Source: a virus
Lineage: Duplodnaviria; Heunggongvirae; Uroviricota; Caudoviricetes
Length of the DNA stretch: 16,694 bases
Virus record (IMG/VR): IMGVR_UViG_2617270968_000003
Location: 1 to 16,694 of that record
Direction: 5' to 3' (one strand)
The position numbers and the translations under genes are program-made. The notes under the pieces are model-generated. The model searched no databases, had not been told where the DNA came from, and saw only the letters and a program-made list of their open reading frames with translations. Below, piece by piece: positions 1,747 to 11,175 of the stretch. Numbering within the stretch: the first letter of the stretch is position 1; each line of letters starts with the position of its first letter.

Positions 1747-3276
1747 AATGGTGCCGATAATAGGAGTCGAACCTACGACCTTCGCATTACGAATTATAAG
1801 AATCCACTTCTAATTCAAAGCATTACCCCATCAACACTGCGCTCACACGTCCCACCACATCAAAACATGTAAAGCCTTGCAAGCCATTGTGAGGCCTTAT
1901 GTGTCTCAGTTTTGTCCCACCTTGTATTACGACTTGCATAGCCAATGAAGATCAACGTGACGACAAACGGCGCAGCAGTCTTCTTTTCCTTCATACTTTC
2001 CCCAATCAGCATACATACTTTCTACCATAACTGTAGTGAATGTCTGTTATGAGCGAGCAAAAGAGATTCAATTACCGGGGAATTACTCCGACATAAGCTC
2101 TCCCAGAAACACCGGAACAGCGATTCGCATATTCTCTTCTATACTTTCAGTCTGACCGGCTGGAGATTTCATAGCAAGAAAATGGATGCGCCAAGACCTA
2201 TGCGGGAAAGAGGCTGAGGAAATAATTGCCGATAGCACTGTGCCCGCCGAAAAGTTATCTGGCACGCAATGACGCGCGTCCTTGGGGCATCAGGAATCAG
2301 AGAGCCAACTTAACAACCCATTATATATTATTTAACCGGACCGTTACATGTACAAAGTTCAATGATTAGTGATTCTGTGACGCCACATACAACCTAAGCC
2401 CCTGATATAAAACCAGTCTATGCAACACCTAAAAATCATATATGATAGGGTGATAAGTCAACGCGCAGTATAAAAATCAAGCTAAAAAATGCTTTCAGCA
2501 TAGTGAATCTATTTCACACTACATAATTAAGGATGAAAAAATGACTGCACCAGTAATTAGTTTTATCAATATGAAAGGTGGGGTTGGTAAAACAACTTTA
2601 TGCGTTGGGATTGCTGAGTTTTTAGCCAACCATATGGGGCGCAAGGTTCTAGTTATCGATATTGATCCTCAATTTAATGCCACTCAGTCCTTAATGGGGC
2701 ATTATGATCGAGTAGAAGAATATATGACTGCCCTTCGCCCTAATAATCAAACCATTCGAAAGATTTTTGAGCTTCCAAATTCATTAATGGAAGATGAAAA
2801 GAAAGTGACACCAGAACAGGTCATTACTAAAGTTTCAGACAATCTTGATATTATCTTAGGTGATATAAACATTATCTTTGATACTAACCAAGAGGGTATT
2901 AGAATAAAAATGTTGCGTAAATTCATCACCGAAAATGACTTAAAAGAAAGTTACGACTATATCTTTATCGATAGCCCCCCAACAATCTCATTATTTACAG
3001 ATACCGCACTCCTTGCTTCTGATTATTATCTTACTCCGGTTAAAATTGATCACTACTCGGTGCTTGGAGCAAGCAGTTTAAATAGCGTTATAAGAAATAT
3101 GCGCACACATCATGAGAAAGAAATCAAGCAAGTCGGTTACATTTATACAAACACTGATGCTGAAATGACCAATAAAACAAGGGAAATTAAAGAGCAATTC
3201 GAAAACCATACTCAATTTACAAATTTTTATTTCTTTGAAAATCAATTAACCTACGTGCGTGATTTAATGGTAGGTT
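1747..3276. repeat. Direct repeat copy 1 (about 1530 bp) of the element's left end: att fragment, 745-bp leader, 5' 736 nt of ParA-like gene
   Basis: Matches 15165..16694 at offset 13,418; verified by eye at both ends and at internal points; two 60-aa ORF translations in the track are identical between copies. Confidence 0.85.
1749..1794 (-). other. 46-nt 3' fragment of tRNA-Thr(CGU) (thrW-type) - attachment-site copy (ptwF-like tRNA pseudogene), copy 1
   Basis: Plus strand reads TGGTGCCGATAATAGGAGTCGAACCTACGACCTTCGCATTACGAAT, the reverse complement of a tRNA 3' end (CCA, acceptor stem, T-arm GGTTCGACTCC, anticodon loop with CGT); similarity stops where the 5' half of a tRNA should be, so the gene is partial. 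Confidence 0.8.
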
Positions 3277-3386
3277 ATCAAGGGAATATTCCTTCTTGTT
3301 ATTCAAAGTCACGCCAAGATATAGAAAAGATCTGTAACGAATTTATTAACAGAGTGGCTCACTTGGAAGGTAACACAAATGAATAA
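2541..3386 (+). CDS. ParA/MinD/Soj-family P-loop ATPase (deviant Walker A), 281 aa; first gene of a three-gene operon
   Basis: N-terminal ISFINMKGGVGKTT (KGGxGKT deviant Walker A), VIDIDPQ, IFIDSPP (ParA-type Walker B region); ATG at 2541 with AAGGA SD 7 nt upstream; AT-rich. Confidence 0.85.
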   Translation: MTAPVISFINMKGGVGKTTLCVGIAEFLANHMGRKVLVIDIDPQFNATQSLMGHYDRVEEYMTALRPNNQTIRKIFELPNSLMEDEKKVTPEQVITKVSDNLDIILGDINIIFDTNQEGIRIKMLRKFITENDLKESYDYIFIDSPPTISLFTDTALLASDYYLTPVKIDHYSVLGASSLNSVIRNMRTHHEKEIKQVGYIYTNTDAEMTNKTREIKEQFENHTQFTNFYFFENQLTYVRDLMVGYQGNIPSCYSKSRQDIEKICNEFINRVAHLEGNTNE

Positions 3387-3777
3387 ACAATTAATTAAAG
3401 CGCTCAATAAAGCTAACAATATGCCCATGACCAAAGAAAACTTCTTAGGCTTGGTAATTATGTTGATTCTTTCAAAAGAGGTTTTTAGATCAAATTTTGA
3501 TGTTAGTAAATTTATTAACAAAACCTTCAAAATATCTTTTTTGAATTATGCTGTACGGTCAAGAACTTTGATGTGCGCTAAAATTTGCAAACATATTAAT
3601 GAATTAAGTGAGAATGACATAAAGATGGCTTATACGCATTTCTTAAACAACATTAACACATTAGACATTATTTTTAATGATGCAAATAAAACAAGCCAAA
3701 AATCCACATCTAAAAGCAAGCATGCTATAAGGAATTTAAATATTTGGATTAATGCAAATAAAAAGGAAGAAGAATAA
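3379..3777 (+). CDS. Hypothetical protein, 132 aa, Lys/Asn-rich; second gene of the ParA-like operon
   Basis: ATG at 3379 overlaps the ParA stop by 8 nt (ATGAATAA) with GGAAGG SD; same AT-rich composition; no motif I can assign. Confidence 0.6.
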   Translation: MNKQLIKALNKANNMPMTKENFLGLVIMLILSKEVFRSNFDVSKFINKTFKISFLNYAVRSRTLMCAKICKHINELSENDIKMAYTHFLNNINTLDIIFNDANKTSQKSTSKSKHAIRNLNIWINANKKEEE

Positions 3778-4442
3778 TGCTCACGCAGGATCCCTTCAAC
3801 ATTGGAAGAGATGTAAATTATTTTAGAGCGGAGGTGCAAAAGCACCTCAGAACCACTGATGAAATAAACAAATCAGTATCAATATTTAGGCAAATAAGTC
3901 TTTGTAATACAATTTTAAGTCACAATCCTAATCTAAATCACTCTTCTTATATAAAAGGTTTTATATATGATACCTTAAACTCCTTAATTGCCATTATAAA
4001 AAAAAGAGAACGGTATCTCCAACTGAACTTCCGCTCAATGGTGGAGCATGTGGCCAGAATAAGCCTCAATAAGAACTACAATGGTGGGGATTTTGACCAA
4101 ACTGTACGTCGTAGAGACTTTGACTTCTTAAAAGCCCAACAAGTCGATGAAGGCTGGTCTTATTTACATAATGTCTATATCAACGCCTGTTATTATGTTC
4201 ACTCCTCCCCCCAAGCGAACCTAAATGTTACATCAACATTTATATCACTTATGGAGGGAGATTGTAATTCAACACAGCATAAAATGGTGAAAAAACTTCA
4301 TGAGGTAGTATCGGCGCTGATGAGAATCATTATAAAGTATTATCATCAGCATATCTCAAACATTTTCTTTAGAAACAAAAAGGATTTAGAGAAAATAATG
4401 GGAAAAAGCCTTTATTCATATTATACCAGCTTAGACAATTAA
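3777..4442 (+). CDS. Hypothetical protein, 221 aa; third gene of the ParA-like operon
   Basis: ATG at 3777 overlaps the previous stop (TAATG) with AAGGAAGA SD; AT-rich; no recognisable domain by eye. Confidence 0.6.
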   Translation: MLTQDPFNIGRDVNYFRAEVQKHLRTTDEINKSVSIFRQISLCNTILSHNPNLNHSSYIKGFIYDTLNSLIAIIKKRERYLQLNFRSMVEHVARISLNKNYNGGDFDQTVRRRDFDFLKAQQVDEGWSYLHNVYINACYYVHSSPQANLNVTSTFISLMEGDCNSTQHKMVKKLHEVVSALMRIIIKYYHQHISNIFFRNKKDLEKIMGKSLYSYYTSLDN

Positions 4443-4479
4443 TTCTCTCATATTCATTGCGTAGAGCATAAATATCTAT

Positions 4480-4900
4480 CTAACCACCTAAAATGCCAGA
4501 AAATCTAGTTGTATACCGGTGCGAAAATATCTCGCGTTTCATCTGCCACTGCTGCTGAATGCCCTGCCCAGCGAAACAGAGTGTTTCCTTCCCGTCTTTT
4601 GCGTTGAGGTGCTCCAGCACGCTCATTAACTTTTCGCTCCCAGGACCCAGCGCGTTATCGTCGAATAGGTTAGGGCATGCTCTGACTGAAGAAGTCCCCC
4701 AGCATTACCCCGGCTTTCTGATATCGGTGTCCGTCTTTCCATATTGCATCCAGACTCCCCGTTGCTACTGCAATGATATCCCGACTGTCCTGTGTCGGGA
4801 TGAGCAGCTTCACCGACGCGTTGTTACAGTAGTACGACTCGTTCAACGCAAAGGGTATCGTGTAAAACCGATGATGACACTGCCGGCAATCAGCACTGAC
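4480..4900 (-). pseudogene. umuC: 3' remnant of a umuC-like Y-family (Pol V) translesion polymerase gene; frameshifted and truncated
   Basis: Minus-strand translation gives ...PFALNESYYCNNASVKLLIPTQDSRDIIAVATGSLDAIWKDGHRYQKAGVMLGDFFSQ, then after a frameshift NLFDDNALGPGSEKLMSVLEHLNAKDGKETLCFAGQGIQQQWQMKREIFSHRYTTRF, closely matching the remembered C-terminal ~140 aa of E. coli UmuC; no intact ORF, N-terminal 2/3 absent. Confidence 0.75.
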
Positions 4901-5372
4901 GTCAGCAAACGTGAGAAAGAACAGATAAGCCGAACGATTTAGGAAATGTTTGAAGAGACTGATATGTGGATGGTTTCAGTTTAAACGCCTTGAACCGTCA
5001 TATTACCTAAGTACAATCCGCTGTGACTGGCAATCATTCAATACTTGCACTATCAAAAGTGCATCAGCCAACCGCAGCACGTCTTGCATACGACCTGTCT
5101 GCGGTTTCAATCACCTCTCACCACCAGTCCCATCAATAATAATTAAACAGCGCCTAAACAAAATAAATAACAACAAGTCAACAACCTCGACAGGATGCCG
5201 ATGGGATGATGAAGAGATAAGAAAGAATAACTAGTAAAGCCCTAAAACGTCAGCGTTCAGACGCGTTTTTTACTTAACCGGTAACAAATACGTTGTATCA
5301 TAGCAACATAAAATGATTGTTCTAAATCAGATTAACTCCTCACTTTTGTACAATGTCGCTTACAGGTATACC

Positions 5373-7262
5373 ATGAAATCCGAGACGCTAACTGTCCAAC
5401 AACTTTTTCAAGACCGCCGACAATACTGTGTTCCATTCTATCAACGTGCCTATGTATGGACTCAGCGAAACCAATGGTCAGCTCTACTGGAGGATATCCT
5501 AGAGAAAGCACAATCCCGGCTCTCGGGTACAAAACCAACTCCCCATTTCCTTGGTGCAGTTGTACTGGAACCTCAACCAAAAAAAGGATTATTCGGTGTA
5601 GATTCCATACATATTATTGATGGTCAGCAACGATTGACCACTCTTCAATATGTTCTGGCATCCATCCGATTAGCATTACGTGCAACAGATCTTTCCAACT
5701 TAGAGCCTCTCATTTCGTCTTGCCTGAAAAACTCAAACGAAGACACAATGCGAAATAAAGAAGTAGAGCGCTTCAAACTGTGGCCAACTTTTCGGGATCA
5801 AACTCATTTTATTCAAAGTTTTAATGTTGAAAATATTGACGATATCCGGAATGTATTCTCTGATAGTTTCACGCAGCATGGTACGTTGCGTAAGCATTTT
5901 AATCACCCGCCATCACTAGAAGCATTATGTTTTTTTACTGAAGCCTTTATAAAGTGGATTAAAATAGAAAATCACTCACCACGAGAAAATGCTGTAGCAT
6001 TAATTGAGGCTGTCTTGACGGATCTGAAACTAGTAAGCATATTTCTCGAGGCTGAAGATGACGCTCAAATAATTTTTGAAACATTAAATGGCAGAGGTGC
6101 GGAACTTCATGCCACAGATCTTATTCGCAATTATATTTTTATGTGCGCTGAACATGAAAATATTAATGCTGTTGAATTATATGAGAATGAGTGGAAGATC
6201 TTTGAAGATACGTACTGGTCAGAAAGACAACGTCGTGGTCGTATTAATAAACCACGCATGGAGTGGCTAGTGCATGCAACATTGCAATCAGAAAGGCAAC
6301 GTGAAATCGATCTGTCTCGTCTTTACAATGAGTATCGTGATTATGTAAGTAAGGACTTGCCTTCACAACGAGCAGATCTGCAAGTAAAGCGCCTCAAACA
6401 ATATGCATCACAATATAAAGAATTGGTTGGTGGTTTTGGCACAACCCCCATCTCACACTTTGGACATCGCATCGCAGCCTATGATGTGACGACACTTTAT
6501 CCGCTTGCTTTGTTCATTTCGATAGCTAACATCGCCGATGATGAGAAAGCAGCCATGTATAATGATCTTGTCTCCTACGTAGTACGAAGAGCCGTATGTG
6601 GCCTGACGCCAAAGAATTACAACAATGTATTTATGAATGTATTGCGGCACTTGTCTAAAACAGAAATTTCCAGTGTTGAGTTACGTAATATCCTCAATAG
6701 CTTAAATGGCGAAGCCTCACGTTGGCCTGGGGACTCAGAATTTCTCAACGCTTGCATCAATGCTCCACTTTATCCTGGCAGGCTCGACGCACCGAAAATG
6801 CGCTCAATGTTAACGGAACTTGAAAGAGAACTTTGTCGCCAAGTGAAGACAGAGAAGCCTGATGTTCCAAATCTTTCTAACCTCGATATCGATCATCTTA
6901 TGCCTCAAAGTTGGTATTCCTGTTGGCCTCTCGAAAATGGTCATATGGTGACAAATTCAGATGCTACGGTATTGAACCAAATTGTTCTGTCTGGAACCGA
7001 TCTTACCCCAGAACAGCTACTGGTAAGGAAACGGCAACAAGCGATAGCTACGTTGGGAAATCTAACTTTGCTTAACCTTAGCGTAAACCGTTCTGTTCAG
7101 AATGCTGTATTTCTGAAAAAACGTGATGCTCTCATCGTCCACACCAATCTACGACTGAACATTCCACTTATAGTTAAGGATAAATGGGATGAGGATGAAA
7201 TCCTGGAGCGGGGTAAAATGTTGGGGGAAATTGCATTGAAAGTATGGCCAAAACACGATTAA
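5373..7262 (+). CDS. GmrSD-family type IV (modification-dependent) restriction endonuclease: N-terminal DUF262 (ParB-like NTPase) + C-terminal DUF1524 (His-Me finger nuclease)
   Basis: DUF262 signatures VPFYQRAYVW and IIDGQQRLTT; C-terminal DIDHLMPQSW ... LGNLTLLNLSVNRSVQNAVFLKKR typical of DUF1524; about 630 aa. Start taken at 5373 (MKSETLT, weak AGG SD); in-frame ATG at 5313 is possible. Confidence 0.8.
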   Translation: MKSETLTVQQLFQDRRQYCVPFYQRAYVWTQRNQWSALLEDILEKAQSRLSGTKPTPHFLGAVVLEPQPKKGLFGVDSIHIIDGQQRLTTLQYVLASIRLALRATDLSNLEPLISSCLKNSNEDTMRNKEVERFKLWPTFRDQTHFIQSFNVENIDDIRNVFSDSFTQHGTLRKHFNHPPSLEALCFFTEAFIKWIKIENHSPRENAVALIEAVLTDLKLVSIFLEAEDDAQIIFETLNGRGAELHATDLIRNYIFMCAEHENINAVELYENEWKIFEDTYWSERQRRGRINKPRMEWLVHATLQSERQREIDLSRLYNEYRDYVSKDLPSQRADLQVKRLKQYASQYKELVGGFGTTPISHFGHRIAAYDVTTLYPLALFISIANIADDEKAAMYNDLVSYVVRRAVCGLTPKNYNNVFMNVLRHLSKTEISSVELRNILNSLNGEASRWPGDSEFLNACINAPLYPGRLDAPKMRSMLTELERELCRQVKTEKPDVPNLSNLDIDHLMPQSWYSCWPLENGHMVTNSDATVLNQIVLSGTDLTPEQLLVRKRQQAIATLGNLTLLNLSVNRSVQNAVFLKKRDALIVHTNLRLNIPLIVKDKWDEDEILERGKMLGEIALKVWPKHD

Positions 7263-7310: not shown

Positions 7311-7512
7311 CTCACTATTAAATCCTTTAATTTGCAACAAGAACAGCAGTGTCAGCCCTAGGTTTCGGACTTTGTACCGCTTATCTTGTCTTCAAAAATC
7401 AGCTCGCATCCTGCACAGCTCAACGCATTACGTTGTAGATCGGTGTTCTGGTCATTTGTTGATACGCGTACATAGCCAATAAGCATGGTAGATCCCCCTG
7501 ACAAAAGCAGGA

Positions 7513-8085
7513 ATGATGCCATTTGCTCGTTATTTCTGCATTTTCATAAACGTTGGTTTGGGAGAAGGTGCTCCAGCTATTGGCGTTCCGTTCTTCTGGC
7601 CGTCCGCCGCAATGCCAAATACTGTAATCGACAGTTGGTCCAGTATGGTGTTTTTGAAGTTCAACGGCGCGAAATTCTCTGCCACTGATTACCCTGTGCT
7701 GGCGAAAGTGTTTCCGGCGCTAGCATTACCTGACGCACGGGGTGATTTCATTCGTATCTGGGATGATGGGCGCGGGATTGATGTCGGACGTACCCTACTT
7801 TCAGGGCAATCACACACAATTATGGATCATGCACACAATATGGAATTGTGGACGGGGGACGGGCTTGCCGCAGGAAGTGCACGGGAAGGAGTAAACCCAG
7901 GAATACTGGCTACATACGGTGACGGGGGAATAGTTAAAACGGACGAACCCGGTCTTAAGGTGCCTTCCTCACTACGAGCTCTTAGCTCTCGTAGTGTTAA
8001 ACGTTATGGTGAAATTAGTGGAAATGTAGATACAGAAACCCGTCCACGAAATATTGCATTTAACTTTCTGGTGAGGGCTAAATAA
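7513..8085 (+). CDS. Phage tail-fibre C-terminal fragment (tail-collar domain), 190-aa ORF; probably a remnant
   Basis: PFFWP...MPNTVIDSW...NGAKFSATDYPVLAKVFP...LPDARGDFIRIWDDGRGID fits the phage tail-collar pattern; C-terminal ...ETRPRNIAFNFLVRAK is tail-fibre-like; no N-terminal anchoring region and no other structural genes nearby. Confidence 0.5.
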   Translation: MMPFARYFCIFINVGLGEGAPAIGVPFFWPSAAMPNTVIDSWSSMVFLKFNGAKFSATDYPVLAKVFPALALPDARGDFIRIWDDGRGIDVGRTLLSGQSHTIMDHAHNMELWTGDGLAAGSAREGVNPGILATYGDGGIVKTDEPGLKVPSSLRALSSRSVKRYGEISGNVDTETRPRNIAFNFLVRAK

Positions 8086-8146
8086 TGATACCTGTTTTTG
8101 ATGAAAATGGGCTGGCTACAGTGCCGGGCGATATGCGTTGTTTTTA

Positions 8147-8320
8147 TTATAATGCAGTATCCCCTTCACAACGGTGAGCCACACGCCCACTCTGACGTAA
8201 CTTGCTTGCTGACTGCTGAACGCGCTGCCGCGAGTAACCAGCAAAAGCATCCGCAATGTCTCCGGAAGTACACCCCGGATTGGCTTCAATGAATTTCTGA
8301 ACGTCATTTAACAGACTCAT
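8147..8320 (-). CDS. Small hypothetical protein (57 aa), possible winged-helix DNA-binding protein, coupled to the replication gene
   Basis: ATG at 8320 lies 2 nt after the TGA stop of the upstream gene, with an AGGGGG SD; translation MSLLNDVQKFIEANPGCTSGDIADAFAGYSRQRVQQSASKLRQSGRVAHRCEGDTAL; under 60 aa so absent from the ORF track. Confidence 0.4.
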   Translation of the reverse strand: MSLLNDVQKFIEANPGCTSGDIADAFAGYSRQRVQQSASKLRQSGRVAHRCEGDTAL

Positions 8321-8322
8321 GA

Positions 8323-9264
8323 TCACCCCCTGAATCCTGCCGGGATCTGGCTGTAGTCCACGTTGTCGTAACTGGCTTTGAAGTACGGGTCTTCACGTTT
8401 TTCTGTGTGCGTGCTGACGGACGGCGATAAGCGCAGGGAAAGCTCATCCCATTTTTCCCGCAACTTCGACGGGCTGAGCACGTTACGGCACCAGAACGGA
8501 TCGCGGCTGACGCGGCTGTACATCTCGCAGATTTGTTTGTGAGTACGACCATCCTGCACACACATCAGGCGAATTTCGTTTGCCCAGGCTGTCCAGTTAG
8601 GTTCTTTGGGACGAACCACCTCGCCGTCACATTCGGCGGCCTGCTCGTACAGGGCGATGATTTTTTTCCAGAGCCACTGTGCGCAGGTCAAATCATCCTG
8701 CGTTCCCCACTGGCGCTTTTTAGAGCTGAATACAACCGCATCAGGATGACGAGTTAAAAAATCCTGTTCATCCTTCTTCATGTCCGGTTGCGAAGCGTCC
8801 GGACGAGAAGTTTTTTTATCTGACGGATCATGTTTTGATTTTACTGACGGATCCCCGCCAGATTCTGACGGGTGAAAACCCGCTTTTTTGCCAGATTTCG
8901 ACGCATCAAATTTTGACGGGTCAGATTTTGATGCGTCAGATTTTGACGGGTCAGAATCTGACAGTTGAGAAAATGCCGCTGCCTGAAGCTTCGCAACGTT
9001 AAGCTGATAAACATTCGACGCATTGCGGTTACCCTGGCGACGCGCCTTACGCGTTAACCAGCCTTCTGCTTCCAGCCGTGCGATAGCCGTTCTGACGGTA
9101 CTCATCCCCGCGCCAATCTGGCGGGCAATGGTTTCAATTGATGGCCAGCACACACCTTCGTCATTACTGAAATCAGCCAGGCGGGCCATAATTGCCACGC
9201 TGGATAACTTCATGCCTGACGCAGCGCAACCATCCCATACATAGCCGGTTAATTTAGTGCTCAT
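8323..9264 (-). CDS. Phage replication initiation protein (lambda O-like: N-terminal winged HTH, pentapeptide-repeat linker, C-terminal domain), 313 aa
   Basis: N-terminus LSSVAIMARLADFSNDEGVCWPSIETIARQIGAGMSTVRTAIARLEAEGWLTRKARRQGNRNASNVYQLN resembles replication-initiator wHTH domains; GAGG SD before ATG at 9264; position after cro/CII genes on the same strand. Confidence 0.65.
   Translation of the reverse strand: MSTKLTGYVWDGCAASGMKLSSVAIMARLADFSNDEGVCWPSIETIARQIGAGMSTVRTAIARLEAEGWLTRKARRQGNRNASNVYQLNVAKLQAAAFSQLSDSDPSKSDASKSDPSKFDASKSGKKAGFHPSESGGDPSVKSKHDPSDKKTSRPDASQPDMKKDEQDFLTRHPDAVVFSSKKRQWGTQDDLTCAQWLWKKIIALYEQAAECDGEVVRPKEPNWTAWANEIRLMCVQDGRTHKQICEMYSRVSRDPFWCRNVLSPSKLREKWDELSLRLSPSVSTHTEKREDPYFKASYDNVDYSQIPAGFRG
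8861..8964. repeat. Imperfect tandem 15-bp repeats (GATTTTGACGGGTCA-like, about 6 units) inside the replication-initiator gene, encoding DPSKS/DASKS pentapeptide repeats
   Basis: Units at 8861, 8894, 8909, 8924, 8939 and a partial one at 8954; protein shows SDSDPSKSDASKSDPSKFDASKSGKK. Confidence 0.8.
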
Positions 9265-9273
9265 GACCGACCT

Positions 9274-9612
9274 CTATTTCCCTGAATTTACGACGAAACT
9301 GTTCGAGCGGGCTGAAGCACTCATGCTCATAGCCTTCGCGGAGGTAGATAACCCGTTGTGTTTCCGGCTCCCAACGAATGACTCTGACGGGTACTCCGTA
9401 GTGATCTTTGAACCAGCGGTTAACTTGTCGCAAAGGACTGTCTCCTTCTGCCGGTTGAAATCACCCACAGCCCACTCTGCAAAGCTGTGGGTTACAATTT
9501 CCCTGTCACCTGGTACATTCACTGCATAGCAATATTCCACCTTCGCTTTTCCACCCGGTACAGGAAGCGCAATCAGTTGCGAGCGACGGTAGTGTGTTGT
9601 TAAACTGTTCAT
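9274..9612 (-). CDS. Hypothetical protein, 112 aa, between CII-like and replication genes
   Basis: ATG at 9612 overlaps the CII-like stop as ATGA; GGAGA SD 9 nt upstream; stop 9 nt before the next gene's SD. Contains a 9-bp perfect hairpin at 9463..9492. No recognisable domain. Confidence 0.45.
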
Positions 9613-10178
9613 GCGTTAGTTTCTCCACAACCAGAAGCAATCGACGCCACGACGCCCGGAGCTGCACACTCGCGGGCGTCATTACTTTCTGAAATGCAAA
9701 AAATTTTGTAAACAAGTGCTGCATGCTCCTGCAGCTTCGAAATTGAGAGATACAGCTCGTCGTTAATTGCTGTCTTCTCATGCGGTTCCACTACACCGTC
9801 TTCGATTGCTGAACGAATCTGTTTTGAATAACTGCCGATCTGTTCAATGACTTCCAGCAGACGCTGGTTAATATCGGCGTTGTCCACATCCTCGACGTCA
9901 GGAAGAGACACAAAGACGCCATTTGCAGACTGCGCCACAGCATCAGCAATGAAGTGAGTGCCACCAGCACGCTGTAAAACCATTGCCCATCCCAGCGGGA
10001 AAATCTGATCGCCATCTGCACGAAGGCGGTTGAATAAAGCGTTTTCTGTTACATCGAGCCAGTCAGCCGCTTCAGCGTAACCACCCGGCAACGCCGCGAT
10101 AGTTTTTCTGACAGCTTTCACGTACCACTCAGGCTGTTTTTCTATTTTCCAGTGATGCTTACCCACGATTAGCCTCAT
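9609..10178 (-). CDS. Phage regulatory protein, CII-like (CP76/YdaT-like family), 189 aa
   Basis: Immediately downstream of the cro-like gene on the same strand, as lambda cII is; size and context fit the enterobacterial prophage CII-like family; family assignment is from memory. Confidence 0.5.
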
Positions 10179-10209
10179 CGTTCTGTGGTTAAAAATTGAA
10201 AGTGTTCTG

Positions 10210-10410
10210 CTAATCTTTCGGATAGATATCCGGTCTTAAGTCAGATTTCGTAATTGCACCTGACGTGCATTGCTCAAGTTTTTTAGCCAGCACAAAACTG
10301 GCTTTTTTATAGCCATTGAAAACCAGCCGTAAGTAGCCAGGTGTTGAGCCAACTTTTCCGGCCAACTCGCCCTGCTGTTCTTTGGTTAAAGAGTCCCAAT
10401 ACGATTTCAT
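10210..10410 (-). CDS. Cro/YdaS-like HTH transcriptional regulator, 66 aa
   Basis: ATG at 10410 with GGAGG SD 9 nt upstream; MKSYWDSLTKEQQGELAGKVGSTPGYLRLVFNGYKKASFVLAKKLEQCTSGAITKSDLRPDIY resembles Cro/YdaS-type HTH proteins; divergent from the cI-like gene. The longer 167-aa ORF in the track is an upstream extension without SD. Confidence 0.65.
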   Translation of the reverse strand: MKSYWDSLTKEQQGELAGKVGSTPGYLRLVFNGYKKASFVLAKKLEQCTSGAITKSDLRPDIYPKD

Positions 10411-10500
10411 ACGATATGTACCTCCGGTGTACATATTACATGATTGAAATGAACCTTCAAGATACTTGTACCTTAACGGTACAAGGGTTTTAATTTCGTT
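10411..10500. promoter_or_regulatory. Divergent cI/cro intergenic control region with two palindromic operator-like sites
   Basis: Inverted repeats ATGTACCTCCGGTGTACAT (10416..10434) and CTTGTACC-TTAAC-GGTACAAG (10465..10485), both built on TGTACC/GGTACA half-sites, between divergent repressor and cro-like starts. Confidence 0.6.
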
Positions 10501-11175
10501 ATGAAAACAATCCATGACATCCGGCGGTCTAACGCCAGAAAACTGAGAGATGGTGTTGGCGGGAATTCTTCCTTTGCCACTATGATTGATCGCGAGCCAA
10601 CCCAGACCAGCAGGTTTATGGGAGATGGTGCTACTAAAAATATCGGTGACAGCATGGCACGACACATCGAAAAATGTTTCGACCTGCCTGTCGGATGGCT
10701 CGATCAAGAACACCAGACAACGAACATCACAAAAAAACCTGATGTTTCAATCACTAATAAACAAATCACATTAGTCCCTGTCATATCATGGGTACAGGCC
10801 GGAGCATGGAAAGAAGTTGGATATTCTGAGGTTGATTTGAGCACAGCAGAAACGTATCCCTGCCCTGTACCCTGTGGGGAAATGACTTATATCTTGCGGG
10901 TGATAGGTGATTCAATGATTGATGAGTACCGCCCGGGAGACATGATTTTTGTCGATCCTGAAGTACCTGCCTGCCACGGTGACGACGTTATTGCATTGAT
11001 GCACGATACAGGTGAAACCACCTTCAAAAGGTTGATAGAAGATGGGACACAGCGTTATCTCAAAGCGTTAAACCCAAACTGGCCTGAGCCTTACATTAAG
11101 ATCAACGGTAATTGCTCTATAATTGGAACTGTGATTTTCTCAGGAAAACCAAGAAGATACAAAATCAAAGCCTAA
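10501..11175 (+). CDS. CI-like phage repressor with C-terminal S24 (LexA-like) autopeptidase domain, 224 aa
   Basis: C-terminal VIGDSMIDEYRPGDMIFVDP...GDDVIA (S24 Ser site GDSM, later Lys); divergent from cro-like gene; no SD upstream of the ATG, so possibly leaderless like lambda cI from PRM. Confidence 0.75.
   Translation: MKTIHDIRRSNARKLRDGVGGNSSFATMIDREPTQTSRFMGDGATKNIGDSMARHIEKCFDLPVGWLDQEHQTTNITKKPDVSITNKQITLVPVISWVQAGAWKEVGYSEVDLSTAETYPCPVPCGEMTYILRVIGDSMIDEYRPGDMIFVDPEVPACHGDDVIALMHDTGETTFKRLIEDGTQRYLKALNPNWPEPYIKINGNCSIIGTVIFSGKPRRYKIKA

Follow-up and report, generated by a model that had tools for sequence, protein, structure and literature searches.

Gene content of the operon

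Positions 8147-10410 of the window (the whole stretch of 16,694 nt that was analysed) carried genes in the order ymfT (cro), ymfL (CII/CP76 family), ymfM, DUF4222, O-like initiator and yfdN', with touching or overlapping stop and start codons at most junctions. The features of this region and its flanks were:

10501..11175, plus strand: ymfK (cohE), cI-like repressor with a Peptidase_S24 autocleavage domain (Pfam PF00717, 1.5e-26), divergent from the operon
10411..10500, no strand: cI-cro intergenic control region, with operator-like palindromes and a weak sigma-70-like promoter upstream of cro
10210..10410, minus strand: ymfT (croE), 66 aa, Cro-like HTH repressor and first gene of the operon (PHROG 35 'transcriptional repressor', 4.7e-15)
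9609..10178, minus strand: ymfL, 189 aa, regulator resembling CII, of the CP76 family of phage 186 (PHROG 101 'CII-like transcriptional activator', 7e-71; Pfam PF06892 with 51.5 bits, cut-off 26)
9274..9612, minus strand: ymfM (orf112), 97% identical over 112 aa to the K-12 'cell division inhibitor YmfM'
9463..9492, minus strand: perfect 9-bp stem-loop within ymfM, extended to 11 bp in the fold, arms 9463-9471/9484-9492, 12-nt loop
9254..9433, minus strand: DUF4222 gene, 59 aa, TTG start (Pfam PF13973, 67.3 bits against a cut-off of 27, 8.6e-19; PGAP WP_001250269)
8323..9264, minus strand: O-like replication initiator, 313 aa (Pfam HTH_36; PHROG 391, 1e-134; AlphaFold models)
8863..8965, no strand: proposed ori iterons, near-palindromic 15-bp units TCTGAC(C/G)C(G/A)TCAAAA with A-tracts, encoding DPSKS/DASKS
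8805..8844, no strand: proposed unwinding element immediately 3' of the repeats, the 40-nt stretch with the highest A+T content (70%) in the initiator gene
8147..8320, minus strand: yfdN' stub (orf57), 57 aa, codons 1-55 of a 164-aa wHTH+PerC-family gene, then two junction-derived codons and a stop
8085..8156, plus strand: fragment of a tail-fibre-assembly gene abutting the junction 8156/8157 (PGAP annotation of the identical locus L001)

The five minus-strand reading frames that the earlier note had joined into one operon were present, as were the ATGA stop/start overlap at 9609..9612 and the 2-nt gap at 8321..8322; the sixth gene, DUF4222, had been overlooked. The calls of cro, CII-like and O-like genes were borne out by the PHROG 35 match of YmfT, the Pfam Phage_CP76 match of YmfL, and PHROG 391 together with a lambda O C-terminal domain in the initiator. 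YmfT also had matches below threshold to YdaS_toxin and HTH_3, and was 97% identical to K-12 YmfT. YmfL was 99% identical to K-12 YmfL, and its PF06892 score above the gathering cut-off places this predicted activator in the phage 186 CII/CP76 family; in K-12 and PGAP annotations the gene starts at GTG 10166, giving 185 aa. The ymfK product is annotated as LexA family in L001 and in K-12. Operator-like palindromes occurred at 10407-10443 and at 10465-10485 CTTGTACC/GGTACAAG (inverted repeats I4 and I10), and a weak candidate sigma-70-like promoter, TTGAAG-16-TAATAT, was picked out by eye and was not listed by a consensus promoter scan. No Rfam family was matched anywhere in the window at gathering thresholds.

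The 2264-bp region was 100% identical to annotated E. coli chromosomes, with matches to parts of it in 2789 of 5426 complete E. coli genomes and to at least 80% of it in 1493. The prophage adjoins tRNA-Thr/proA in E. coli genomes with the matching region and, judging from the identical 2264 bp in those genomes, this is apparently the insertion site of the remnant too. The Shigella serotype-converting phage SfI also integrates at tRNA-Thr/proA (thrW) (PMC3636060). The operon is already known as a common prophage module and is largely annotated; near-identity and collinearity with named genes of the K-12 prophage e14 and with orf38-42 of phage SfII place it among the e14/SfII-type operons. The region is very probably the early rightward (PR-type, cro-to-replication) operon of a lambdoid prophage of this type, in which everything 3' of yfdN codon 55 has been lost and in which repeats inside the initiator gene represent putative ori iterons.

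Homology to intact yfdN stopped at 8157, with the deletion junction at 8156/8157. The stub holds wHTH residues 1-55 only and nothing of PerC, which occupies residues 100-151 of the intact protein, and PGAP describes it as 'MarR family, incomplete, missing C-terminus'. What had been taken for a 57-aa wHTH protein in place of P is this truncated yfdN, and everything 3' of it was deleted in the remnant; nin, Q, lysis, head and tail genes, seen in intact relatives (L002, SfII), are missing between yfdN' and the tail-fibre fragment. The repressor, promoter region, intact initiator and putative origin are retained, so that SOS induction could conceivably fire local replication in situ.

ymfM, the overlapping DUF4222 gene and an internal hairpin

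Profile and sequence comparison identified orf112, which had been entered as a reading frame without known identity, as YmfM, with a 3' half common to the DUF4222 gene. The N-terminal ~60 codons (9433..9612) formed a conserved small-protein module with stand-alone homologues of 52-70 aa in L091, L103, and L126, and the C-terminal 52 codons were the +1 frame of the DUF4222 gene. YmfM has been published as a cell-division inhibitor, based on filamentation upon expression of the ORF, and frame-specific mutants of ymfM were not reported there (bioRxiv 10.1101/2020.11.19.390815).

The DUF4222 gene lies in a different frame from orf112 and overlaps its 3' 160 nt, with AAGGAG 8 nt upstream of the TTG start and a stop 8 nt within the O-like gene. 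In 28 diverse loci, DUF4222 was immediately 5' of the initiator gene or overlapped its start codon; in a literature search, it received incidental mentions only. Membership of the family was evident from a score above the gathering cut-off and from purifying selection in the DUF4222 frame. In the overlap (9274..9433), 4 synonymous vs 20 non-synonymous changes were counted in the ymfM frame and 14 vs 10 in the DUF4222 frame, with ~21% synonymous expected, and the N-terminal half of ymfM had 16 synonymous vs 6 non-synonymous changes. DUF4222 is the constrained frame in the 3' half of ymfM. Annotations are split, K-12 having ymfM without the DUF4222 ORF, and PGAP having DUF4222 without ymfM. As both frames carry signal, the division inhibitor that has been studied shares its DNA with a second, better-conserved gene, and knock-out or over-expression constructs for either gene alter the other too.

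The ymfM frame was free of stops across DUF4222 in 16 of 20 lineages, vs ~7 expected when codons were permuted within each gene; a null of uniform synonymous codons was set aside as unfair, because it inflates rare NTA codons. The lineages with an open frame include Providencia and Proteus phages without a YmfM-N homologue upstream, and in all 16, both frames stopped no more than ~25 nt from the initiator start codon. If dual-coding, the segment could be a conserved two-frame device that supplies ribosomes to the initiator, or encode an overprinted second protein, which would bear on the product that underlies the published filamentation. It is possible, if on balance doubtful, that one or other of two things holds, namely that 9274..9433 is truly dual-coding, or that O-type initiators without P (see below) load host DnaB by an undescribed route, possibly with DUF4222.

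The hairpin reported in orf112 is present, with a predicted fold of -25.5 kcal/mol (z = -2.6; 2 of 200 shuffles were equally good). Perfect stems of this kind would arise by chance ~0.2 times per 2.3 kb, a rough estimate based on the length of the stem and the base odds. A functional RNA or DNA element within ymfM, be it a control of DUF4222 translation, an RNase III site, a terminator or an attenuator, would fit with a stem that is perfect over 9 bp, with its z value, with its position just 5' of the DUF4222 ribosome-binding site (the hairpin ends 15 nt 5' of the Shine-Dalgarno), and with its retention in L089 and L091, two loci that have diverged to 46-65% YmfM-N identity. However, the arms are codons (H-S ... 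A-V-G) of the most conserved peptide of YmfM, HSFAEWAVG, and coding constraint on that peptide accounts for the retention. The hairpin is also missing from L126, L088, L103, L097, L107, and L117, the variants seen had the stem broken or shortened with nothing compensating, and neither compensatory changes nor covariation were seen among the related loci compared. The structure itself stands, but it bears no sign of selection as a structure, and a functional element at this place is quite unlikely. An intrinsic terminator was ruled out, as the stem is followed by GAUUUCAACC with no U-run, and the site was neither among the terminator-like sites listed by the scan nor matched in Rfam.

Initiator domains and the repeats within the gene

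The initiator comprised an N-terminal winged helix (residues 1-98) and a helical C-terminal domain (164-280), joined by a linker predicted to be disordered (102-163), and ended in a C-terminal tail. It was 98% identical to SfII_41 (SfII orf41), and BLASTP aligned it with lambda O (2e-26, 31% over 216 aa, residues 70-277) and phi80 gp15 (6e-24, 35%); tblastn found many O genes of lambda and Stx phages at 35.6% identity. The C-terminal domain is homologous to the P-interacting domain of lambda O. No N-terminal Phage_rep_O domain was found in the initiator, which has an HTH_36/MarR-like winged helix instead, and a PDB search with the family profile returned weak MarR-type matches to the N-domain and none for the C-domain. 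The C-terminal tail (281-313) was considered as a mark of P-less initiators and rejected: it is similar to the C-termini in lambda and phi80, and in L092 P is present along with the tail.

TRF detected an array at 8892..8955 (period 15, 4.3 copies, 81% matches). The unit TCTGACCCGTCAAAA, with up to three mismatches, occurred at 8941-8955, 8926-8940, 8911-8925, and 8863-8877, with 0.5 occurrences expected in the whole window, and degenerate units lay at 8896-8910 and ~8956-8965, so that the earlier description of about six imperfect copies at 8861..8964 was fair. The search inside the initiator gene for iterons and an AT-rich origin, which the earlier note had advised, thus yielded both as candidates, and an origin of lambda type is predicted here at the level of sequence. 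The repeats are at nt 310-400 of the gene and the AT peak at nt 421; in phi80, 21-bp tandem repeats taken as iterons are at gene nt 367-439 and the AT peak at 441, as is the AT peak of lambda. That the origin lies within the initiator gene is a textbook feature of lambdoid phages. In 74 of 80 diverse homologues, a tandem array in the middle of the gene preceded an AT-rich peak, and the arrays differed in sequence and period.

Where N-domain identity was at least 72%, three to eight window-type 15-mers were kept, even with C-domains 44-67% identical. Conversely, the L097 initiator, with a C-domain 96% and an N-domain 17% identical, had no window-type 15-mers, and the P0038 gene (C-domain 97%, N-domain 67%) had a variant 15-mer and a mosaic junction at nt ~420, within the 8805..8844 tract. 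Identity to the L168 gene was 0.55-0.78 up to about nt 420 and 0.88-1.0 beyond. The repeat sequence tracks the N-terminal DNA-binding domain of the initiator, not its C-terminal domain, across genera and mosaic junctions. The repeats are best read as putative ori iterons, the translation of which forms the disordered interdomain linker.

The repeats had been described as a slippage-prone variable linker, and their number does vary among relatives, with proteins of 274-337 aa that differ by gain or loss of 5-aa units, but the putative role of the repeats as DNA sites matched to the N-terminal domain was missed. A flexible protein linker with no role of its DNA, in an element that is a helper- or host-dependent replicon for want of P, would agree with this range of lengths, with the predicted disorder of the repeat segment, and with the lack of a P, DnaB or DnaC gene. 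Yet it would leave aside that the repeat sequence follows the DNA-binding domain, that differing arrays precede an AT-rich peak at the same place in so many homologues, and that their position matches the lambda and phi80 origins; furthermore, the best 80 IMG/VR copies of the initiator were all of one length, and SfII, with the same module, grows on its own. A linker without a DNA role is therefore very improbable. In principle, repeat expansion could have produced the 15-bp spacing and the palindromes as a side effect. Variants in which most repeats are lost (P0015, P0017, P0067, and P0032, the last on 128 contigs) count against an origin role, because an essential origin would not tolerate such loss, unless the prophages are defective. 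Under the reading as putative iterons, changes in copy number would amount to iterons gained or lost, as between lambda (4) and Stx phages (6); in Stx-phage O, two extra iterons add 13 aa (PMC7466680).

Absence of P, helicase loading and related systems

As had been claimed, no P, DnaC or DnaB homologue follows the O-like gene, and this was also true of intact relatives and SfII. In particular, no Phage_lambda_P homologue was found in the window, in 80 close IMG/VR loci or in SfII, and P does not stand immediately 3' of the initiator gene as in the lambda O-P module; the same test detected P (PF06992, up to 4.6e-63) after homologous initiators in L092, L093, L095, and L102. Intact relatives have the order O - yfdN - LexA-DBD protein - RusA - KilA-N - DUF968 - Q, and the complete SfII genome (41.5 kb) has no further annotated replication gene. 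SfII is inducible and infective (PMC3772137). Because it holds in intact relatives and in viable SfII, the absence of P is a family trait, and the dependence on a helper proposed earlier does not follow from it. P-less modules of O type are common, a P-like gene being absent from 32 of the 75 diverse loci, and viable phages have them; SfII would be a convenient model for helicase loading. Among 111 ORFs downstream of 31 P-less loci, three matched DnaC-like families, and DnaB_C was not among the 25 families listed of the 40 matched.

By analogy with lambda, inactivation of the S24-type repressor YmfK would allow transcription of the operon. The N-terminal winged helix of the initiator may then bind the 15-bp putative iterons in its own gene, the adjacent A+T-rich tract would melt, and the C-terminal domain would bring in the replicative helicase. 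As the e14/SfII-type family lacks genes for a P, DnaC-like or DnaB-like protein, the latter is most likely host DnaB, recruited either through delivery by host DnaC or by direct binding.

In Morganella, Erwinia, Edwardsiella, and Serratia, a genuine lambda-P gene comes after close homologues of the initiator, which implies that the C-domain may be built for a P-like partner and that a substitute not yet recognised may serve the P-less phages. Proteins of the PerC family are known to activate transcription. A phage-encoded partner beyond homology detection might recruit the helicase, the candidates being the DUF4222 protein, the translation of which is tied to that of the initiator, and YfdN, the wHTH+PerC protein encoded immediately 3' of the initiator gene. 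Besides the pairing of the same C-domain family with P elsewhere and the tight position of DUF4222 before the initiator, this draws on the presence of DUF4222 in 20 of 32 P-less vs 5 of 43 P-containing loci (Fisher p = 5e-6), and on yfdN-like wHTH genes after the initiator in several lineages. However, the association of DUF4222 with P-less loci is confounded by relatedness, P and DUF4222 co-occurred in five loci, DUF4222 was missing from 12 of the P-less loci, and the genes after O in P-less loci are diverse (Dam, MT-A70, ParB-like, DUF1627). With YfdN assigned to a family of activators, and no structural or sequence link found to any loader, such a partner appears unlikely, and recruitment of host DnaB by the initiator remains the preferred reading.

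The K-12 cryptic prophage e14 (ymfK-ymfT-ymfL-ymfM-oweE (ymfN)) has the same genes in the same order, with 97-99% protein identity for YmfT, YmfL, and YmfM, and the window shares e14-like pin and tail-fibre fragments. K-12 oweE is 99% identical to the first 79 codons of the initiator, but in K-12 only these ~79 codons are left, fused to a terminase gene, whereas the window has an intact initiator and a deletion that begins in yfdN. In K-12, e14 lies at icd, while the copy in the window is probably at tRNA-Thr/proA. The SfII (KC736978) genes orf38-orf42 match in their order of cI, cro, cII, orf40 (= ymfM), O-family and PerC-family genes, and, as in the window, the annotation of the SfII genome contains neither P nor a helicase gene. 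SfII differs in its cro and in being a complete phage, whereas the window holds a remnant without nin, Q, lysis, and morphogenesis genes. SfV/mEp460 has a related P-less module with a different initiator that has only the last 33 residues in common. Weigel and Seitz, in FEMS Microbiol Rev in 2006, reportedly classified single-initiator ('initiator-solo') phage replication modules, a term that was not found in our literature search; these modules are likewise said to have an O-type initiator and an internal origin with no adjacent helicase or loader gene, which offers a lead. Lambda O with ori-lambda and phi80 gene 15 with its ori differ from the window in that P (lambda) or gene 14 (phi80) follows the initiator, in having iterons of 18-21 bp rather than putative iterons of 15 bp and, for lambda, in the Phage_rep_O type of N-terminal domain. 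They are alike in their homologous C-terminal domains (31-35% identity) and in a two-domain initiator with the origin, iterons and then an AT-rich tract, at the interdomain linker, as is predicted here, and the likeness extends to a mosaic junction between a unit of N-domain plus iterons and the C-domain, and to an iteron number that varies between related phages.

Identity and decay of the operon

The five minus-strand ORFs running from 10410 to 8147, with an ATGA overlap at 9609..9612 and a 2-nt gap between the initiator TGA and the next ATG at 8321..8322, were all present in the window sequence as the earlier note had described them. It is a known module, and a very common one. The 2264-bp region recurred at 100% identity in several annotated E. 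coli chromosomes, and of 5426 complete genomes of the species, 2789 gave a match to it and 1493 contained at least 80% of it. The genes ymfK, ymfT, ymfL and ymfM are named e14 genes of K-12 (protein identity 97-99%), ymfL starting at GTG 10166 in the K-12 and PGAP annotations, and the 313-aa initiator shares 98% identity with the phage SfII product named 'O protein family protein'. At an identical locus, tRNA-Thr and proA adjoined the element; this is the integration site of the Shigella serotype-converting phage SfI (PMC3636060).

Features of the operon and of the adjoining debris
10501..11175, plus strand: ymfK, cI-like, S24 peptidase; named K-12 e14 gene
10210..10410, minus strand: ymfT, cro; named K-12 e14 gene
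9254..9433, minus strand: DUF4222 gene, 59 aa, in another frame than ymfM (Pfam DUF4222, 67 bits, cut-off 27)
8085..8156, plus strand: tail-fibre-assembly fragment
7513..8085, plus strand: tail-fibre C-terminal fragment
7358..7522, minus strand: stub of a Pin-type serine invertase, 54-aa N-terminal part

The observations made earlier were largely correct, and their interpretation has to be amended in four respects: one overlapping gene was missed, the last gene is truncated, the repeats are read as iterons, and the absence of P (the lambda-type helicase loader gene) is a family trait. Follow-up seems worthwhile only for the ymfM/DUF4222 overlap and the helicase-loading route of P-less O-type initiators.

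The last ORF, orf57, had been taken for a small 57-aa gene in the place of P; it is instead a truncated yfdN in which codons 1-55 run into two junction codons and then a stop. The intact yfdN of relatives encodes 164 aa, with a PerC domain besides a MarR-like winged helix; homology to these relatives stops at 8157, where the tail-fibre-assembly fragment starts. Compared with these relatives, the nin, Q, lysis, head and tail genes are gone from the prophage.

The remains of an e14-like invertible tail-fibre region occupy 7358..8156, with parts 87-95% identical to K-12 pinE/stfE/tfaE DNA; strain BS74R-D (the annotated locus L001) carries an IS66-family insertion in this debris, which is absent from the window. 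Just past the pin stub lies a 649-aa ORF (5313..7262, plus strand) with GmrSD_N and GmrSD_C domains, annotated by PGAP as a DUF262 domain-containing protein and likely a type IV modification-dependent restriction enzyme. Three genes, one of the ParA family and two hypothetical, lie on the left side of the remnant (2541..4442, plus strand); at the identical locus in L001 they were flanked by fragments of SOS-response-associated peptidase, umuC-like (DUF4113) and dinI genes, which suggests that another mobile element has decayed here. Between the divergent repressor and cro genes (10407..10485) there were two operator-like palindromes built around GTAC, TCATACGATATGTAC/GTACATATTACATGA and the perfect CTTGTACC-n5-GGTACAAG.

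ymfM and the overlapping DUF4222 gene

The orf112 product is YmfM, which the K-12 annotation calls a cell-division inhibitor; with the ymfM ORF expressed from pBAD24, Z-rings fail to form and the cells filament (bioRxiv 10.1101/2020.11.19.390815). The earlier gene list, correct in its five ORFs, missed a sixth, the overlapping DUF4222 gene (9254..9433), whose TTG start has AAGGAG 8 nt upstream. PGAP calls this gene where K-12 has ymfM, and leaves out ymfM itself.

Among 52 distinct close sequences, substitutions in the 5' half of ymfM were mostly synonymous in the ymfM frame (16 synonymous, 6 non-synonymous). In the 160-nt overlap, the counts were 4 and 20 in the ymfM frame and 14 and 10 in the DUF4222 frame, against an expectation of about 21-24% synonymous. 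The YmfM N-terminal module was a stand-alone ORF of 52-70 aa in three distant loci (L091, L103, L126) and was fused to YmfL in a fourth (L088). By the counts and these modules, therefore, DUF4222 and YmfM residues 1-60 are the conserved units, and the 52 C-terminal residues of YmfM represent DUF4222 read in an alternative frame. In L088 (Pantoea sp. R13S299, 4042-4815) the YmfL homologue and the YmfM module share one 257-codon open frame, an apparent gene fusion which hints that YmfL and YmfM act together.

The DUF4222 genes of 29 loci (L085-L145), 33-100% identical, were surveyed for open frames. The +1 frame, that of YmfM (window 9274..9433, minus strand), was stop-free in 24 loci, and the remaining alternative frame was open in none of the 29. 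With each gene's own synonymous codons permuted, 7.0 open lineages were expected against 16 observed among 20 lineages delimited by eye (Poisson-binomial P ~4e-7). In Providencia and Proteus, which have no YmfM-N homologue, an ATG ORF of 58-62 aa fills the +1 frame. Across the 16 open lineages, and relative to the initiator start codon, the alternative-frame stop fell at -10 to +16 nt and the DUF4222 stop at -13 to +25 nt. This suggests a conserved two-frame arrangement, which may reflect either coupling or overprinting.

The 9-bp perfect stem-loop claimed within orf112 is present in both sequence and fold (11 bp in the fold, z = -2.6). In HSFAEWAVG, the most conserved YmfM peptide, H-S and A-V-G are encoded by the stem arms, and the stem-loop was kept in two diverged loci that retain this peptide and missing from six others. 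Variants in close relatives weaken it with no compensatory change, and neither a U-run after it nor an Rfam match was found. In our reading, the hairpin is a coincidence of coding; there is a slim chance that it acts in the translation of DUF4222.

Repeats within the initiator gene

TRF detected 4.3 copies of a 15-bp period at 8892..8955. The unit TCTGACCCGTCAAAA, allowing up to 3 mismatches, occurred four times within 8863-8955 against 0.5 expected over the whole window, with degenerate copies on both flanks; the units are imperfect palindromes of 13-19 nt. Lambda O (2e-26) and phi80 gp15 (6e-24) have C-terminal domains homologous to the initiator C-domain. The phi80 gene has 21-bp tandem repeats, taken to be the phi80 iterons, at nt 367-439 and then an AT-rich peak at 441; in lambda the peak also lies at nt 441, directly past the ori repeats. 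In the window gene the repeats span nt 310-400 and the AT-richest 40 nt (70% A+T) begin at nt 421. Of 80 diverse homologues in other genera, 74 had a mid-gene tandem array, mostly followed by an AT-rich maximum, the arrays differing in sequence and period (12, 15, 21-24 or 45 nt).

Genes with an N-domain at least 72% identical kept 3-8 window-type 15-mers, even at C-domain identities of 44-67% (Pantoea, Providencia, Citrobacter), and L097, with a 96% identical C-domain and an unrelated N-domain, had none. The P0038-type E. coli gene (N-domain 67%, C-domain 97%) carries a variant 15-mer, TTGACCCGTCAAATA, and its nucleotide identity to the window gene rises from 0.55-0.78 to 0.88-1.0 at nt ~420, exactly past the repeats. 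The 15-mer type thus tracks the N-domain, not the C-domain, 'N-domain + repeats' being inherited as one specificity unit. N-domain and repeats likewise form one specificity unit in lambda O and ori-lambda.

The earlier note read the array as a variable linker. AlphaFold predicted a winged helix (1-98), a helical domain (164-280) and, joining the two, a disordered linker (102-163) made of the repeat-encoded residues. Copy number varied as expected, relatives' initiators being 274-337 aa long and differing by steps of 5 or 10 residues; the 313-aa form was dominant and found in all 80 closest IMG/VR copies. Because of their position, generality and covariation with the N-domain, we read the repeats as more than a linker, namely as putative DNA sites, i.e., origin iterons, the pentapeptides being merely what the iterons encode. 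Initiator variants with most repeats lost, presumably in dead prophages, are the main caveat to the iteron reading.

Helicase loading without P

Downstream of the initiator, intact relatives carry in turn yfdN, a LexA-DBD protein, RusA, KilA-N, DUF968 and Q, and the complete 41.5-kb SfII genome has no further annotated replication gene. Phage mEp460 (L167, 2778-3596) and Stx2c phages encode a different 272-aa 'replication protein' of the SfV gp39 type, likewise followed by a PerC-family gene; only its last 33 residues are common to the window initiator (82% identity), and a mosaic junction therefore lies near the initiator gene 3' end.

In 75 diverse loci the downstream sequence was long enough to look for P: a lambda-P homologue was present in 43 and absent from 32. 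DUF4222 was present in 20 of the 32 P-less and 5 of the 43 P-containing loci (L085-L164; Fisher p = 5e-6, confounded by relatedness), and in this set its gene lay immediately upstream of O-like initiator genes with several N-domain types. Only three of 111 ORFs downstream of 31 P-less loci matched DnaC-like families, and DnaB_C was absent from the 25 families listed out of 40 matched. P adjoins full-length homologues of the window initiator in Morganella, Erwinia, Edwardsiella and Serratia; beside the P-less loci, this means that the C-domain family works in either setting, P present or absent. Structural searches with the initiator C-domain gave no informative match. The likeliest helicase route here, we infer, is host DnaB with host DnaC.

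P is indeed absent from the window, but the reason given earlier for the lack of a helicase loader does not hold, since intact relatives and SfII are also P-less. Nor does the element appear helper-dependent on this ground, the P-less state being a family trait shared with SfII, which was induced from a wild strain and is infective for several serotypes (PMC3772137).
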